IMG/VR virus record: IMGVR_UViG_3300033998_000095
Span: 1-64,000 of that record
Strand: one strand, 5' to 3'
Length of the DNA: 64,000 bases
From: a virus
A model generated the notes under the pieces. It was not told the DNA's origin. It ran no database searches and saw only the letters and a program-made list of their open reading frames with translations. The translations under genes were made by a program, and so were the position numbers. Below are positions 57,684-64,000 of this stretch, one piece after another. Position 1 is the first letter of the stretch. Each line of letters begins with the position of its first letter.

Positions 57684-58673
57684 TTACCAAGTTAAATTAT
57701 CCATATGATCAATATTAATTCCAAATATATCTATAATTGGTTCTAGTCTCTTATAAATTGCAATATCAAGCATGGCATCTATATCTGGATAAAAAATAGA
57801 GGTATCTAAATTAACTCCTTCAGGTACTGTAATAACATCAATCTGATCGTTTTTAATTAGCAAACCCTCAACACGCATTTGCTTTAATTTCTTATCATAA
57901 TCTTTGATCTTGCTACCATCTACTTTACTTATAGTAAATGTATATCCTCTATCTCCTTCATAAAAGGTAGGACCATATATGACATTGTATATTTTCATGC
58001 CTCTTATAGTCTTTGTCAATACTTTATATTCTCTAGCACCCCATCCACCAGGAACTCCTAAAGTATAATCACCAGCCATAAGTCTGGTTTTATATTCATC
58101 TATATATTTGTCTATTAGATTTAAAATTTGAAAAGAGCTGTATTCTTCTCTTAATATCTTATCTATAACATCTTGTAACATCTGTTTAGTAAACCTTGGG
58201 AAATCTGCTCTAACCACCTCCATACCAGTGATACTTAGATTATCTATTTTCTTTCCTTCTTTGTTGATGATCCATAATGCATACTTCTTCTTTGCATCTA
58301 AGAACATAGCTCTCTTAATAACTAATTCCTCTTTAAATGTAAAGTTATATTTAGTGGCAAGCTCAGAATCACCAGCATTATGCCTTTTAAGCATTTCAGG
58401 AATGATATATTTATTAATATATTCAGAACAATTTCTAACAATCTTTAAAGTGGTTTCTGTCTTTTCATCTTCACTTATTGAATCATATTTATCACCATAT
58501 AATGACTTGAGCACTGGTTCAATAAAGAGAAACATTGAGTCAGTATTATGTACTAAAATGTCATTAGCAAAAAACATATGGTTATTATCAACTTCAATAT
58601 CATATACATACTCTGGTACATTATTTTCAATTTTCTCAACAGATGCTATTCTTTCCTTTACTATAGGCATCAT
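57684..58673 (-). CDS. polB: DNA polymerase B C-terminal fragment preceded by the split C-intein (aa 1-43)
   Basis: VYDIEVDNNHMFFANDILVHN|TDSMF (intein blocks F/G, Thr+1); then FKEE, AKKKYA, GMEVVRAD. Confidence 0.93.
   Translation of the reverse strand: MMPIVKERIASVEKIENNVPEYVYDIEVDNNHMFFANDILVHNTDSMFLFIEPVLKSLYGDKYDSISEDEKTETTLKIVRNCSEYINKYIIPEMLKRHNAGDSELATKYNFTFKEELVIKRAMFLDAKKKYALWIINKEGKKIDNLSITGMEVVRADFPRFTKQMLQDVIDKILREEYSSFQILNLIDKYIDEYKTRLMAGDYTLGVPGGWGAREYKVLTKTIRGMKIYNVIYGPTFYEGDRGYTFTISKVDGSKIKDYDKKLKQMRVEGLLIKNDQIDVITVPEGVNLDTSIFYPDIDAMLDIAIYKRLEPIIDIFGINIDHMDNLTW
58545..58673 (-). other. split intein C-fragment (IntC, 43 aa)
   Basis: ends His-Asn followed by Thr of the polymerase TDS motif. 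Confidence 0.93.
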
Positions 58674-59005
58674 CTAGTACCCCCTATTCAAAATATCCAT
58701 ATATATTATTATAATGATATGGAGTAAAATCCATATCGATCATATAGCATTGCCACAGCAGAACCACCAGGCTCCCTAAATAATATATCACATCAGGAGA
58801 TATATATCTCCAAATATTTTTTAACTGTCTTTGTGGATTAAGTATAGCATAATATCTCTCACTTATCAAGCATATTAATATTAATAATCTCTTTAATGAT
58901 ATAAAAATTTACATATATATTATTATAATGAAAGAAGAAGTTTGTAGCTGTGTTTTACAGGCTTTTTCTTTCAAATATTTTTTTTACTTTTAGGGGGGTA
59001 TTATT

Positions 59006-59224
59006 ATGTTTAAGGTTGTAATTGAATCTTTATTTAATGATAGGTATGGGAAAGGTAAAAGGAAAGAATTCGTAGTATTAAGTAAAGCAGTTGCTATTCA
59101 AAAAGCAACTGCATTTAGTAAGCATTCTTGTGTAGAAGTTATCGATCACCATAAACAATGTATTGCTTATGGAGATCCAGTAGTAGGATTCAAGGAGATT
59201 GAGAGTTATGAGCACAATTTGTAA
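59006..59224 (+). CDS. hypothetical small protein
   Basis: SD GGGGGGT; overlaps the start of the next gene. Confidence 0.7.
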   Translation: MFKVVIESLFNDRYGKGKRKEFVVLSKAVAIQKATAFSKHSCVEVIDHHKQCIAYGDPVVGFKEIESYEHNL

Positions 59225-59540
59225 GATATATAAAGCAGTACTGTCAACTACAGTACTGCCAAATGATGGAATTTATCAGGTAAGAACTCTTGAAACCTTA
59301 CCTGATATCACAGGGGTGCCTCATTATATAGGACACCCTGCAACAAAAGCAATTGTAGAACAGCTTGGAGCAGTTGAAGCTTCCTCCAAGCTGTTCCAAG
59401 GATTAGATGTTGGAGAAGCAGCTGTATGCTTTGCCATCAAGCAAGGGAGAAGTACTAGAAAGGATGAAGGGTTCACAACTCCTCATCAAGAAGTTAGCAT
59501 TGATGATCTTTCTGTAAGAGAGATCATCAGATTAGAGTAA
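59208..59540 (+). CDS. DUF1874/YddF (STIV B116, AcrIII-1 ring nuclease-like) family protein
   Basis: AVLSTTVLPNDGIYQ, YIGHPATKAIVEQLG, GEAAVCFAIKQGR and terminal IIRLE align by eye with B. subtilis YddF-type proteins; SD AAGGAG favours ATG 59208. Confidence 0.7.
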   Translation: MSTICKIYKAVLSTTVLPNDGIYQVRTLETLPDITGVPHYIGHPATKAIVEQLGAVEASSKLFQGLDVGEAAVCFAIKQGRSTRKDEGFTTPHQEVSIDDLSVREIIRLE

Positions 59541-59546
59541 TAGAAA

Positions 59547-59582
59547 ATGGAAATGATCTGAGAATACTCAGGTCATTTCCAT
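59547..59582 (+). terminator. hairpin after the DUF1874 gene
   Basis: 16-bp stem atggaaatgatctgag/ctcaggtcatttccat with one G-U pair. Confidence 0.65.
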
Positions 59583-59606
59583 AAATACATAATTAAGAAT
59601 AAGGAG

Positions 59607-60116
59607 ATGATAGTGATGATATCAATGAAAAGGTTAACAAAATTATTTGTTTTATCTTTTATTATAAGCTACTTCTGTATAAATACAGGATTAGCATATG
59701 GGAATAATCTACATTTAGGAACAATTCCAAATGTAGATTATAAAATAGCTGAAAATAATGGTAATAATACTATCACCATCAATGAAAGTGGCTCATCTAA
59801 CATTGATGTAATATTAGATGAGTATGGTGATGTTTGTTTTAATATCAAAAAGATAAATCTCTATTTTACTGCAAATATATTTGCTGTATTAGATATCCTA
59901 ACACAGCTTGATGTTATTGAACCAGGTACATATAGAAATATGATTTTGGATGACAATGGAGTGACATTTGAAGTTGGTGTTAGCTCTGTGAAAAAAGATA
60001 ACGTCATGATGTGCATTAGTAATCAAGATATATCACTAATTCTAGACATTAAAACACCTAAACAGTTTCAATGTCTAGAAGATATAGAAAACAATATTCG
60101 CTCCTTATTTAAATGA
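59607..60116 (+). CDS. secreted/exported protein with signal peptide
   Basis: MKRLTKLFVLSFIISYFCINTGLA signal-like N-terminus; SD AAGGAG. Confidence 0.65.
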   Translation: MIVMISMKRLTKLFVLSFIISYFCINTGLAYGNNLHLGTIPNVDYKIAENNGNNTITINESGSSNIDVILDEYGDVCFNIKKINLYFTANIFAVLDILTQLDVIEPGTYRNMILDDNGVTFEVGVSSVKKDNVMMCISNQDISLILDIKTPKQFQCLEDIENNIRSLFK

Positions 60117-60122
60117 ATAGAT

Positions 60123-60165
60123 AAAGATATCAAGCGTGATTAAACGAATCACGCTTGATATCTTT
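60123..60165. terminator. bidirectional terminator between convergent 59607..60116 and polB-N
   Basis: 19-bp perfect stem aaagatatcaagcgtgatt/aatcacgcttgatatcttt. Confidence 0.85.
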
Positions 60166-60193
60166 TATTTAAGTAATATATTTCACTATATAT

Positions 60194-63100
60194 TTATTTT
60201 TGGTTTGTCAATACAAGATCAGAATCCAATATTTCATTTGGTTTAACTTGCATTAATTGTCCATCTCTCTCAATCATAATAGAATGGTCTTCAGTTACAA
60301 TTAATTCTTTTCCACTTTCAGTTCTAATTCTATACATTGGTTTATTAACTTTATGTCGTGATATATTATTTATTGATCTATATACAGCATCAGAATCTTC
60401 ATATGTAAGTACTTTGTCATTTGCAAAGATATATTCTCTTCCTATATAATTCATAAGTTTGTATTCCTTATGCCTTTCAAATAGATCTTTGATTGGTATA
60501 CCTTCTGGATATTGTTCAGTATTTATTTTTGTATTTTCATCAACAGAATCACCATATACTATATTCTCCAGTACATCAGCATCGAGAAATCTTGTATCAA
60601 ATTCATATGGTTCAATATCCATCTTGTGAGCATCTCTCATTTTATTTAAATACTGATGAATATGATATGCACCCATTGTTACTATTTCTCTTCCAGATGC
60701 AGTTATAGTCTCTGCAGATGGAAAATGAAACAGTCTAAAATATTGATTAGCAATTCCACCATATAGTGAGTTAGTAAGAACCTTATAAGTAAATTGCCAG
60801 TTATTATATCTTTCTGCTAACATATGATTATTATTCTCAATAGCTTTAAACATTTCATTTTTATATCGTTTACGTTCTCTAATAAGCATATCTATAATTT
60901 CATAATAAACTGACAATTTCGTGTTATGATTGACATACATTGTACCCATTATTGTTATTATCAAATTGTGTTTCGTTATAGTCTCATGCAATTTCTGTAC
61001 TGTTATCTGTTTAACATTTAAGTTCTTATCTTCATAATTAATAAGTCTATCTGGTTGAGGTAATAATTCATCTCTATTATAGATATACTCACGAGCTATA
61101 TATTCATCTACCTTACCAACATAGGTGTCAATAGAAATATTATATCGTGCAATGATATATGGATACAGAGAAGAAAGATCCAAATCAGCCAACCAGTTAT
61201 ATAATCCTTTTAATGGTTTTCTTACAAAAGCACCTTTAAGCTTTTCTGTTTCCTGATCATTATCTTTATCATATTCATATTTTTTACATATAACTGTCTT
61301 ATTTTGTTTATCCAATGTTGTAAATAGAATACCATCTATAATTGGAAGTGTGCTGAATGATTCCTCCCAACTGATGTTGGTAGCTCTTATAATGTTAAAT
61401 TGAATATCAATATATTTAAGTTTATTGTCCAACTTTCTAACAAGATGAACATCATTAATATTATAAGCAATGAATCTATTGGGATCTGATAACCACATAT
61501 CATCAAATCGTTTGTCAAGAGACAATTTCTTTATACCAAGTTCGAATTCAGCAATAAATCCAAGTGTATATGATTCTCTTTTACTGAATGTTCTTTTCTT
61601 ATACAATGTTAAATAATCACATTCCACGACATATGGAATGTATGGTTTATTAGTTCTCTCATTAATAAAAATACGACCATATTTGTTTTTACATTCTATT
61701 CCAAGATATTGTGATCTATTAATAATAATTGGCCAGTCAAATGCTGATGAGTTCCATCCTGTTACAAGATCAGGATCTATTTCATCAAATTTTTGAATAA
61801 ACCCGTTCAACATCTTTCTCTCATCATTATATACAAATATTTCAATATTACATTCGTCTTTATATTCAAGATGTTTGATTATTTCTTGTTTATCAATGTT
61901 CAAATTGAATGAGTTGTTTATAAATGTATAATAAGTATCAGTATAGTTATCATACAGGGTTATCAACGATATAGCATATCTCTTTGCAGCTGCCATCATG
62001 TCATCAAGAAGCATCATATTGCCATTGAGAAACAATTCGATATCTATAGCAGCAATTCTTAATGGTTGTTCAGTCTCAGTATAAGTATTTCTAAACTGAA
62101 TATTCTTATATACTGATAGATTCATATCTCCAAAGACATTAAACCCTTTACTCTTCAAATCATTTATTACATTTACTCTATCTTTAAACTGTATAACCTT
62201 GAGCTTTAGTTTATCCTTGTATTCAACAGTATTATTTGATTTACCATAATATAGAGCATATTTATCATCTGTAGTATGAATTATTTTATCTTGTCCTCTT
62301 CTTAATATATAATTAACTTCAGATTTAAGATAATTGTATACTGTATTGACTAACATTATATTATCTGATGTATTACTTGTGGTATCAGTATCACTCTTAT
62401 TGTCATTAACTGTTTCATATTTAGTATTGTTAGGAATAGGAAATAACTTCCTCACATCATCAGTAGTATAAGACATATGTGGTTGAACATTATCTTTTGA
62501 TTCTACAGCATATCTTATTTGTTTTAACCTATTAGCAAAAATATCGTATCTGGACATATTTCTGCATATTGCTGATGGATGAATACATGGCAATAATAGA
62601 TGATCATTATATTTATATATCTTTGTCATAGCATCAGTTATCTTATCTGTTATACCAAATCTACTACATGGATAATTACCAAGTGGAACTATAACAGCAT
62701 CAGCAGGTAATTTAGAAATGATTAACTCTAGATTGTCAAAACAATATGCTATCTCATCTTTCATTGGTGGGTTTGATGGTTGATGAAAACATAAACAAAC
62801 ATTCATAACACCCCAATGAATATCATTAAAACCAGTATTATCTAATGTTTGTCTTAATAACTGTCCTGCACGTCCAACAAAGGGTTTTCCTTCTTTAATT
62901 TCATTGACAGCTGGTGCTTCTCCAACAAATAATACTTTAACTTGAGATATATCATTTGTTGTAAAATCAAAAATAGTTCTTTGTATATCATCTTTATTAT
63001 TAGATTTGCATAATGCACATTGTGTAATGAGTCTCTTTTCTATCTCATCTTTCAATGGAGAGATAGTATCTATAGTATCTTCAACATTGCAAGAAACAAT

Positions 63101-63484
63101 AGATTCTTGATTAAGATTTTCAGTATTATTATTTTTTGTCAATGTAAGATATGTTTTAATATCTTCTTCTGATAAATAGGGATGTTGGTGTTTTAATTGA
63201 TTTATTTCATCAGTAACTTTCTTTGATTTGTTTGACATATATTGTATCTGTTTAGATCTATTAATATTTCTGTGAAATTCAGATAATTTATCAAAAGGTA
63301 CATTTCGTGCAAGTATAGGATTAGTATTAATTAACTGATCTAAGTATATACAAGATAACACATCATCTTCAGATATATTTAATATCGTAGATATATTAAG
63401 TTGTTTAACTGAATCATCCAATGAATCAGTCTTATGTTGTATATAATAAATGTATTTAGTTAGTGGTGATAACTCTTTTGCCAT
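60194..63484 (-). CDS. polB: DNA polymerase B N-terminal fragment with a family-4 UDG domain and the split N-intein (aa 980-1096)
   Basis: UDG: CxxC, VGEAP, PFVGRAG, HPS; Exo I-III: DIE, GWNSSAFD, YNINDV; Pol A DLSSLYP, Pol B KVLTNSLYG, YGD|S; intein block B LIVTEDHSI. Confidence 0.93.
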   Translation of the reverse strand: MAKELSPLTKYIYYIQHKTDSLDDSVKQLNISTILNISEDDVLSCIYLDQLINTNPILARNVPFDKLSEFHRNINRSKQIQYMSNKSKKVTDEINQLKHQHPYLSEEDIKTYLTLTKNNNTENLNQESIVSCNVEDTIDTISPLKDEIEKRLITQCALCKSNNKDDIQRTIFDFTTNDISQVKVLFVGEAPAVNEIKEGKPFVGRAGQLLRQTLDNTGFNDIHWGVMNVCLCFHQPSNPPMKDEIAYCFDNLELIISKLPADAVIVPLGNYPCSRFGITDKITDAMTKIYKYNDHLLLPCIHPSAICRNMSRYDIFANRLKQIRYAVESKDNVQPHMSYTTDDVRKLFPIPNNTKYETVNDNKSDTDTTSNTSDNIMLVNTVYNYLKSEVNYILRRGQDKIIHTTDDKYALYYGKSNNTVEYKDKLKLKVIQFKDRVNVINDLKSKGFNVFGDMNLSVYKNIQFRNTYTETEQPLRIAAIDIELFLNGNMMLLDDMMAAAKRYAISLITLYDNYTDTYYTFINNSFNLNIDKQEIIKHLEYKDECNIEIFVYNDERKMLNGFIQKFDEIDPDLVTGWNSSAFDWPIIINRSQYLGIECKNKYGRIFINERTNKPYIPYVVECDYLTLYKKRTFSKRESYTLGFIAEFELGIKKLSLDKRFDDMWLSDPNRFIAYNINDVHLVRKLDNKLKYIDIQFNIIRATNISWEESFSTLPIIDGILFTTLDKQNKTVICKKYEYDKDNDQETEKLKGAFVRKPLKGLYNWLADLDLSSLYPYIIARYNISIDTYVGKVDEYIAREYIYNRDELLPQPDRLINYEDKNLNVKQITVQKLHETITKHNLIITIMGTMYVNHNTKLSVYYEIIDMLIRERKRYKNEMFKAIENNNHMLAERYNNWQFTYKVLTNSLYGGIANQYFRLFHFPSAETITASGREIVTMGAYHIHQYLNKMRDAHKMDIEPYEFDTRFLDADVLENIVYGDSVDENTKINTEQYPEGIPIKDLFERHKEYKLMNYIGREYIFANDKVLTYEDSDAVYRSINNISRHKVNKPMYRIRTESGKELIVTEDHSIMIERDGQLMQVKPNEILDSDLVLTNQK
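60197..60547 (-). other. split intein N-fragment (IntN, 117 aa, Ser1)
   Basis: begins SVDENTKI right after YGD; TEDH block B; ends at the stop codon with no endonuclease domain. Confidence 0.93.
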
Positions 63485-63535: not shown

Positions 63536-64000
63536 CTAAACTTGGCAAGAAGTCTCCCATCTTCTACAAGTGGGAGATGAATTGCCAATTATTGTTATGA
63601 TTTATGAACTCTATATGCTTAAAACTAACTTGTTTATAAGATTTATTTGGTATAGTGATATAATTACCTTCTATATCTTGTATATATGCACCACCATTAG
63701 TAAAGCCTGTTATAAAACCAACTTTACCAAATACCTTCACTTTATCATTAAGATAAAAGCCATTTCTATATTTAGTGTTTTTACTGTTTCTTTTTTGAGT
63801 TCGATTTGGTTCTTTTCTACCTTTTCTTGGTATTGCTTCATGTAAACTACGCTTCTTTTTTCTAAATTGCTTTATTTTGAAGTAGTTGTCTGGATTATGC
63901 TTTATACTTTCTATTCCTGTTATAGCTATCGCATCATTATAATGAGTTTTTTCTAAGCCTAATTCTTTTCTTCTTATAGTTGTATAACTGCCATAGACTA
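63536..64000 (-). mobile_element. second IS200/IS605 IscB-type element (partial)
   Basis: end structure TTTAA|CTAAACTTGGCAAGAAGTCTCCCATCTTCTACAAGTGGGAGATGAATTGC parallels that of the first IscB element. Confidence 0.8.
63564..64000 (-). CDS. iscB: C-terminus of a second IscB (or IsrB) protein (not in the ORF track)
   Basis: translation VYGSYTTIRRKELGLEKTHYNDAIAI..QFRKKKRSLHE..DKVKVFGKVGFITG..WQFISHL*; RuvC-III HYNDA. Confidence 0.85.
   Translation of the reverse strand, partial: VYGSYTTIRRKELGLEKTHYNDAIAITGIESIKHNPDNYFKIKQFRKKKRSLHEAIPRKGRKEPNRTQKRNSKNTKYRNGFYLNDKVKVFGKVGFITGFTNGGAYIQDIEGNYITIPNKSYKQVSFKHIEFINHNNNWQFISHL

Follow-up and report, generated by a model that had tools for sequence, protein, structure and literature searches.

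What lies between the two halves of a split DNA polymerase gene in a phage genome, and what might it do there? This question is raised by a 64,000-nt stretch of viral DNA, hereafter the window (positions 1 to 64,000 of IMG/VR virus record IMGVR_UViG_3300033998_000095), in which two halves of a family B DNA polymerase gene (polB), each carrying one part of an intein (IntN and IntC), are separated by a gap of 1.5 kb. The gap contains three open reading frames (ORFs) on the plus strand, of which the middle one is our main subject:

59208..59540, plus strand: gene for a 110-amino-acid (aa) protein with a DUF1874/AcrIII-1/Crn2 fold, a putative ring nuclease; Shine-Dalgarno sequence (SD) AAGGAG at 59192-59197

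We find that this protein is a true, very divergent DUF1874/AcrIII-1/Crn2 homologue at the superfamily level. Within a known family it forms a new variant that the Pfam model misses, and where the gene lies is a curiosity rather than a mechanism.

A divergent DUF1874 homologue and its clade

The first-pass annotation of the window had assigned the gene to DUF1874 on the basis of short motifs. These motifs (YIGHPAT, AAVCF, SSKLF and a terminal RLE) are indeed present in the product. The assignment itself stands at the level of the superfamily, where profile-profile and structural matches are clear, but not at that of the Pfam profile, which finds nothing for the window protein. As for the sequence comparisons, the DUF1874 model PF08960 is matched by some members of the clade to which the window protein belongs (5/41 and 6/36; best E 4.7e-16), one of which, P0081, scores 28.6 bits for a cut-off of 26. 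The window protein fails the PF08960 gathering-score test, which is an operational criterion and not a biological one. When the clade profile (A1) was aligned by hhalign with the canonical DUF1874 protein of a related phage (locus L015), the match had a probability of 94.2% and an E value of 1.1e-7, over 98/106 residues. Against the Protein Data Bank (PDB), A1 returned only a chance match to FeoB (E 0.84) and a second profile, A2, matched AFV3-109 (E 0.019). Aligned by hhalign with SIRV1 gp29 alone, A2 gave a weak match (E 0.0045, probability 7.7%) that places IGH on IGH.

As for the structure, the AlphaFold2 (AF2) model of the 110-aa protein has a predicted local distance difference test score (pLDDT) of 85, with a lid region, residues 81-100, as its sole low-confidence part (pLDDT 64-71). 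Foldseek ranks 1-15 for this model are all DUF1874 structures, including Csx1-Crn2 (8y7f/g), AcrIII-1 (6scf), SIRV1 ORF114 (2x4i), AFV3-109 (2j6b) and STIV B116 (2j85), after which there is a cliff to E>1. When compared with VIA-align, the model gives Z scores of 8.7 for 8y7g, 8.5 for 6scf, 8.1 for 2j6b, 7.4 for 2x4i and 6.3 for 2j85, followed by 2.5; the superposition has a root-mean-square deviation (rmsd) of 3.4 with 103 residues aligned for Csx1-Crn2, and of 3.1 with 96 aligned for 6scf. A Foldseek-independent search of 48,161 PDB chains found Z>=5 in only four, all of them DUF1874 (8.6 to 6.3), the next chain scoring 2.6, and a BFVD search produced weak matches only, to uncharacterised viral proteins (best E 5e-3). 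Together, the clade members that reach PF08960, the hhalign alignment, the matches of the AF2 model and the Foldseek-independent search make homology to the AcrIII-1/Crn2 superfamily secure.

The protein is also predicted to form a homodimer, with a score of 0.59 against 0.00 for the best control. This passes a mark that 20 of 30 proteins solved as same-chain pairs reach, as against 1 of 23 whose structures are single chains. Contacts agree between runs to at least 89%, with a partner pLDDT of at least 75, and the predicted interface (residues 14-27, 62, 79, 104 and 109) has invariant residues among its members. Since DUF1874 dimers have already been solved, this result is to be read as a likeness to them, and perhaps as a memory of them, rather than as independent proof.

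Among known systems, the best structural match is the Crn2 domain of Marinitoga Csx1-Crn2 (8Y7F and 8Y7G; Z 8.6-8.7, rmsd 3.3-3.4). However, Crn2 is of cellular origin and forms part of a fusion with a CARF-HEPN effector encoded at a CRISPR locus, whereas the window gene is a stand-alone phage gene from a clade almost absent from cellular genomes. With SIRV1 gp29 (2X4I, 6SCF) and ICEBs1 YddF from Bacillus subtilis, the window protein shares the fold, the size (110 vs 114 aa), a virus-borne gene, a predicted homodimeric state, an IGH motif whose catalytic His is followed by a Thr, an Arg in the lid loop and a flexible lid. In contrast to this overall likeness, the identity is only 12-16%, a direct Pfam match is lacking, and the residues expected to contact the ligand differ, as detailed below.

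How widespread is this divergent form? The 110-aa protein has about 100 homologues, with identities of 41-93%, and a profile search of 1.84 billion representatives returned only 122 clusters. The core of the clade has 18 invariant columns among 41 diverse sequences. The clade is nearly all viral, being found in 185,579 species genomes on just seven contigs, all from metagenome-assembled genomes. Only two cultured phages carry the gene, Parageobacillus phage JGon-2020a, whose record is unannotated, and Moorella phage MTATph1, where it lies among small accessory genes under the label hypothetical protein; a literature search turned up no account of the window's phage lineage or of the Moorella phage gene. 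In 15 clade loci, the neighbours are phage or prophage genes (integrases, RusA, HNH, RNR, DnaB), and the most frequent neighbour families include no CRISPR genes. In a phylogenetic tree, the window protein falls within a tight crown clade that is joined by a long stem to gp29 and the other canonical members. Identity remains at 60-70% between phages of very different GC content, which fits a universal small-molecule target. In the window, the GC content at third codon positions is 0.27 for the 110-aa gene, compared with 0.157 +/- 0.026 for the long genes of the phage, a modest hint of foreign origin given that it comes from 110 codons.

AcrIII-1 was found in 36 of 28,114 phage genomes by a hidden Markov model survey (10.1101/2024.09.24.614671). 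Since the clade escapes the Pfam model, and its member in the Moorella phage is labelled hypothetical, viral ring-nuclease-like genes may exceed such counts, both in number and in variety. Some clade members (P0015, P0076 and P0098) have CxxC zinc-ribbon extensions or an inserted DnaJ-type CXXCXGXG finger, with Pfam matches to Anti-TRAP (4.6e-5) and DnaJ_CXXCXGXG (8e-4); the window protein has neither.

The ligand pocket and candidate functions

Does the window protein retain the active site of a ring nuclease? In gp29, the residues that contact cyclic tetra-adenylate (cA4) are N8, S11, N13, S49, T50, R66, Q81 and R85, the catalytic residue is H47, and loop 82-94 forms a mobile lid (10.1101/778746). 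We took SIRV1 ORF114 from its genome record as the gp29 reference, the numbering of which reproduces the residues named in that study, and established residue equivalence from HMMER, MAFFT and hhalign alignments:

gp29 H47 (catalytic): window H43; invariant in 41/41 clade sequences and present in 35/36 of a wider set; HMMER, MAFFT and hhalign agree
gp29 T50: window T46; 40/41 in the clade
gp29 R85 (lid): window R84; invariant, 41/41
gp29 G89: window G88; 39/41 in the clade
gp29 N8: window S13; changed
gp29 S49: A45 or D45; changed
gp29 Q81: P76, A76 or S76; changed
gp29 R66 (of the 'NR' segment): K61 (MAFFT, hhalign) or the invariant L62 (HMMER)

The two predictions that had been made about this site are borne out: the histidine of the GH motif is retained, and SSKLF replaces the 'NR' segment, with a Lys or a Leu at the position equivalent to R66. 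An Arg is found at clade position 61 in 2/41 sequences and never at position 62. S11 and N13 of gp29 are not kept in the canonical L015 protein either. In the AF2 model, the low-confidence region 81-100 would fit the mobile lid loop of gp29.

By analogy with gp29, we consider it somewhat more probable than the other readings taken together that the 110-aa protein is a His-dependent, homodimeric ring nuclease of the AcrIII-1 type, which would remove cA4 in the service of counter-defence. The protein would be produced from a small plus-strand operon with its own promoter motif, comprising a 72-aa gene, the coupled 110-aa gene and a 169-aa gene with a signal-like N terminus. The homodimer would bind a cyclic oligoadenylate at the dimer interface, beneath the flexible lid loop, and would cleave it without a metal, the invariant His43 acting as general acid in the way that SIRV1 gp29 acts on cA4. 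The cA4-activated type III CRISPR effectors of the host would thereby be switched off. The enzymatic activity, the cA4 substrate and the counter-defence role during infection are each putative.

Several observations weigh against this reading. The 110-aa protein has no match in Pfam (E<=1), PHROGs (E<=0.1), NCBIfam or PADLOC, and none among PDB sequences when searched with phmmer. In the pocket, the equivalents of N8, S49, Q81 and R66 are all changed. The lid of the clade is four residues longer than that of gp29, owing to a 'GRST' insertion, and contains a conserved HQ that is specific to the clade (H93 in 36/41, Q94 in 40/41); with a lid altered in this way, the ligand may not be cA4. Finally, SIRV2 gp37, a close gp29 homologue and a middle/late gene, showed no anti-CRISPR action in native infection (10.1101/2023.01.10.523387).

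The changes in the pocket bear directly on an alternative that is unlikely but has to be taken seriously, in which the same fold and chemistry would cut or sequester another signal (cA3, cA6, or a CBASS, Pycsar or Thoeris-type molecule) and thus oppose a defence other than cA4-dependent type III immunity. The catalytic His is kept while the ligand contacts differ systematically, with no 'NR' Arg and with Ala or Pro at Q81, the enlarged lid carries the HQ as part of an extra conserved PHQ, and the long stem in the tree parts the crown clade from canonical DUF1874. However, all the DUF1874 enzymes characterised so far (gp29, YddF and Crn2) act specifically on cA4, the clade retains the lid Arg, and Lys61 could be a conservative replacement for Arg66. 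Equivalent function is also suggested by a related phage in which this locus is occupied by a canonical DUF1874 gene. It is likewise a tentative and rather doubtful idea that the virus-only clade, recognizable by 'HYIGHPATK...LF...QGKSTR...HQ', forms a new branch of DUF1874 whose pocket has been remodelled for a nucleotide other than cA4, or which serves as a sponge. If this were true, the phages of many hosts would have gained a counter-measure against a defence that AcrIII-1 misses. With changed ligand contacts around an intact His, the clade is in any case a well-defined target for the question of DUF1874 diversification beyond cA4.

A further possibility, which we regard as improbable, is that the protein does not act in counter-defence in practice, because it aids replication in some other way, for example by binding a host protein, or because it is expressed too late. 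The native-system study of SIRV2 gp37 speaks for this, as does its survey, which places many ring-nuclease genes of archaeal viruses away from anti-defence islands; in that study gp37 was found to bind a lysine methyltransferase (10.1101/2023.01.10.523387). Around the window gene there are two orphans and a replication gene, none of them recognizable as an anti-defence gene. Yet the methyltransferase partner is restricted to Crenarchaeota (10.1101/2023.01.10.523387), and an identity of 60-70% in phages whose hosts are unrelated, together with the invariance of His, Thr and Arg, speaks for a conserved small-molecule site and against a protein partner that is specific to one host. Moreover, the cassette has a promoter motif that is separate from that of polB. 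The AcrIII-1-type ring nuclease remains the reading that we prefer.

The split polymerase and its gap in relatives

The window comes from a 112-kb IMG/VR viral contig, with a CheckV completeness of 41% and a GC content of ~28%. Since relatives with the same polymerase have genomes of 275-284 kb, its source is a jumbo phage. The polymerase is encoded by two ORFs:

60194..63484, minus strand: polB N-half (UDG-like domain, 3'-5' exonuclease, polymerase up to YGD) followed by IntN; 1096 aa
57684..58673, minus strand: IntC (43 aa, ending in VHN) followed by the polB C-half, which starts with TDS; delimited by Pfam matches and by reading the junction

The N-half has Pfam matches to DNA_pol_B (8.6e-25), UDG (7.8e-20), DNA_pol_B_exo1 (6.4e-18) and Intein_splicing (5.6e-8, residues 998-1092), and the C-half ORF to Intein_splicing (1.5e-5, residues 7-43) and DNA_pol_B (1.8e-7). 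The N-half junction reads ...VYGD|SVDENT..., with a 117-aa IntN whose first residue is Ser, and the C-half junction reads ...VHN|TDS, which completes the YGDTDS motif. IntN and IntC thus lie on separate ORFs, the extein motif is interrupted as YGD|TDS, and the nucleophiles are Ser1 and Thr+1. The best explanation is that the two halves are separate genes whose products would be rejoined after translation by a Ser1/Thr+1 split intein. C-halves split in this way are 325-330 aa long and can be followed down to 38% identity; at least 24 of them have the same split, and more distant polymerases have a contiguous intein at the polB site. The UDG-superfamily domain, at 62510..63050 on the minus strand, forms a fusion with the N-terminal region of the polymerase.

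In fractured genes, a concept reportedly due to Dassa et al. (2009), a free-standing homing endonuclease is said to occupy the space between the split-intein halves. The window gap differs in having no endonuclease gene, and an accessory operon on the opposite strand in its place. The first-pass annotation had also seen no recognizable homing endonuclease here, and we agree, since neither Pfam nor PHROGs finds a homing-endonuclease or other nuclease domain in the four gap ORFs (the three plus-strand ORFs and a minus-strand one). The likeness lies in the polymerase itself: as in fractured genes and in Aes123 PolB1, a phage polB is split at a catalytic motif, IntN and IntC are separate, and the intein is a cysteine-free one with Ser1 and Thr+1. 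Split PolB inteins without cysteine are known, that of Aes123 PolB1 being an example (PMC11923092).

Outside the gap, the polymerase does have a mobile RNA-guided nuclease gene at its side. Directly upstream of the polB N-half lies a complete IscB-type element (window 63564..63998, minus strand, continuing to record position 64829), which encodes the sole HNH protein in the vicinity, a 421-aa protein with RRXRR and HNH domains (Pfam 2.2e-66 and 7.8e-12). The gene is preceded by a HEARO/omega RNA at record 64851..65065 (L054:1452-1666, minus strand; Rfam 129 bits, E 8.6e-28).

From the occupants of the gap, it had been proposed that the split intein creates a tolerated insertion site which the phage uses as an anti-defence island. 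What do relatives with the same split carry at this position? Their gaps are listed here with the identity of the polymerase C-half (polC):

L001 and L013: polC identity ~99%, gap 1.5 kb, same three genes
L015: polC identity 59%, gap ~6.6 kb, canonical DUF1874 cassette and ThyX
L016: polC identity 48%, gap ~4.9 kb, ThyX included
L017 and L018: polC identity ~41%, gap ~4.2 kb, ThyX included
L019-L023: polC identity ~41%, gap >7 kb, N-half outside the flank
Gap genes on the polB strand: L015:3044-6670, L016:1422-2138, L017:4529-5200 and L018:5502-6215 (Thy1 3.5e-72 in L015)

The contents of the gap thus differ by lineage, as had been anticipated, the five lineages compared showing a random mix. 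In the relatives, the polB strand of the gap encodes ThyX, an SLT transglycosylase and a QueT transporter, which again sets them apart from fractured genes, and the opposite strand has unnamed genes; the minus-strand ORFs in the L016 and L017 gaps belong to no Pfam family. Such variable cargo fits an accessory function. It does not, however, fit an island for anti-defence genes: with halves lying from 4 to >7 kb apart and ordinary genes between them, partly on the polB strand, the gap is ordinary variable DNA between two genes that are transcribed separately, rather than a landing pad made by the intein, and this part of the earlier proposal has to be given up. For split-gene biology the lesson is a sobering one, the space between split-intein halves behaving like any variable phage region.

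The most informative relative is L015, which has an opposite-strand cassette by IntN with a canonical DUF1874 gene at L015:966-1289 on the minus strand (PF08960 6.5e-24). Like the window gene, to which it is homologous (hhalign 94%), this gene lies on the strand opposite polB near the IntN end of the N-half, with one 178-aa ORF between, and adjoins a 169-aa ORF with a signal-like N terminus. Unlike the window gene, with which it shares 24% identity, it keeps the 'SNR' motif and groups with gp29 in the tree. Two branches of the superfamily at one locus in related jumbo phages argue for equivalent function and provide a natural hint of it. The PADLOC model named 'Csx16' matches the L015 DUF1874 protein, encoded at L015:966-1286 on the minus strand, over its full length at 5e-20, a name that may not separate Csx16 from DUF1874/Crn2.

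The position of the gene also invites the idea of a replication accessory factor tied to polB, such as a DNA- or polymerase-binding protein, since the gene sits between the polB halves, next to a DnaB-like helicase gene, and DUF1874-family genes are found at this place in two related lineages. We regard this as very unlikely. A DUF1874 gene is missing from two relatives whose genomes are complete (275 and 284 kb) and whose polB is split in the same way, and in other phages the clade homologues are not beside polB. The window gene also runs opposite to polB and has a promoter and terminators of its own. We continue to favor a ring nuclease of the AcrIII-1 type.

Control signals and the orphan genes of the cassette

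The remaining features of the gap are the following:

58674..59005, no strand assigned: intergenic region with divergent control signals (repeats, a hairpin, a G-rich SD)
58929-58973, no strand assigned: hairpin of 19 pairs, before the 72-aa gene
59006..59224, plus strand: 72-aa gene, an orphan ORF; SD GGGGGG a few bases before the ATG
59547..59582, plus strand: hairpin with a 16-bp stem and no T run, directly 3' of the DUF1874-like gene; identical in L001
59607..60116, plus strand: 169-aa gene, an orphan ORF; SD AAGGAG at 59601-59606
60123..60165, no strand assigned: hairpin formed by an inverted repeat, with a perfect 19-bp stem (100% complementary) and flanking T and A runs

The layout first described for the gap, with three plus-strand genes between IntN and IntC that have their own SDs and hairpins, is therefore accurate. 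The last hairpin, situated where the 169-aa gene and the polB N-half converge, is likely to be a bidirectional terminator.

Is the cassette expressed independently of polB? A 28-nt direct repeat with a TATAAT-type box is found twice upstream of it, at 58690-58717 and 58904-58931. The 112-kb record contains exactly three copies of its 20-mer core, CATATATATTATTATAATGA, all on the plus strand (0.34 copies are expected in the window), at window positions 58698-58717 and 58912-58931 and at record positions 98538-98557 (L043:1501-1520). The second and third copies each lie upstream of a 5' leader, a GGGGGG SD and a small ORF. From this arrangement, the 20-mer likely represents a phage-specific promoter class, and the cassette seems to have a promoter of its own. 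The timing of this class matters, because it is middle/late expression that makes SIRV2 gp37 fail as an anti-CRISPR.

Downstream of the first copy there is no plus-strand ORF but a small hairpin (58796-58822) that includes a T run. A small RNA after this promoter-like repeat (58722-58825) finds no support, since the segment folds no better than shuffled sequences (z = -1.43). An Rfam scan of the gap gave only sub-threshold chance matches. A 61-aa ORF on the minus strand (58684..58869) has no SD and lies in DNA that is 100% identical to that of the close relative, so that nothing marks this segment as a gene.

As for the two other genes of the cassette, they had been put forward as candidate anti-defence or superinfection-exclusion factors. 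This amounts to guilt by association, as they have no detectable relatives beyond the immediate lineage and no informative fold; in the fetched loci, relatives of either gene were found in the close phage only. On the present comparisons they remain lineage-restricted orphans to which no function can be assigned, and the ESM Atlas had nothing usable for either.

The 169-aa protein has no family in Pfam, PHROG, NCBIfam or PADLOC, and only four homologue clusters in a large-database search (68-96% identity). Judging from SD spacing and these homologues, the real start of its gene is at 59616 or 59625, which gives 166 or 163 aa. The protein has a hydrophobic, signal-like helix at its N terminus (...GLAYG|NN), and its AF2 model (pLDDT 67) consists of a helix (3-30) followed by a beta-sandwich and a C-terminal helix. 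A PH/Ran-binding-like fold found weak matches only (TM 0.3-0.4) and was not taken as an assignment. No significant similarity was detected to the signal-bearing 169-aa ORF of L015 (hhalign probability 2%).

The 72-aa gene, which has no match in Pfam, PHROG, NCBIfam or PADLOC, overlaps the start of the 110-aa gene by 17 nt at its 3' end, an arrangement that makes translational coupling of the two probable. Its sole relative is in L001, a close phage contig, with 79% aa identity compared with 97-99% for polB. No other part of the locus diverges as fast, the nucleotide identity to L001 being 80-84% here. It adjoins a segment, window 58350-58950, in which the DNA is 100% identical to that of L001, and the boundary between the two levels of identity, near 58950, is sharp and mosaic-like.

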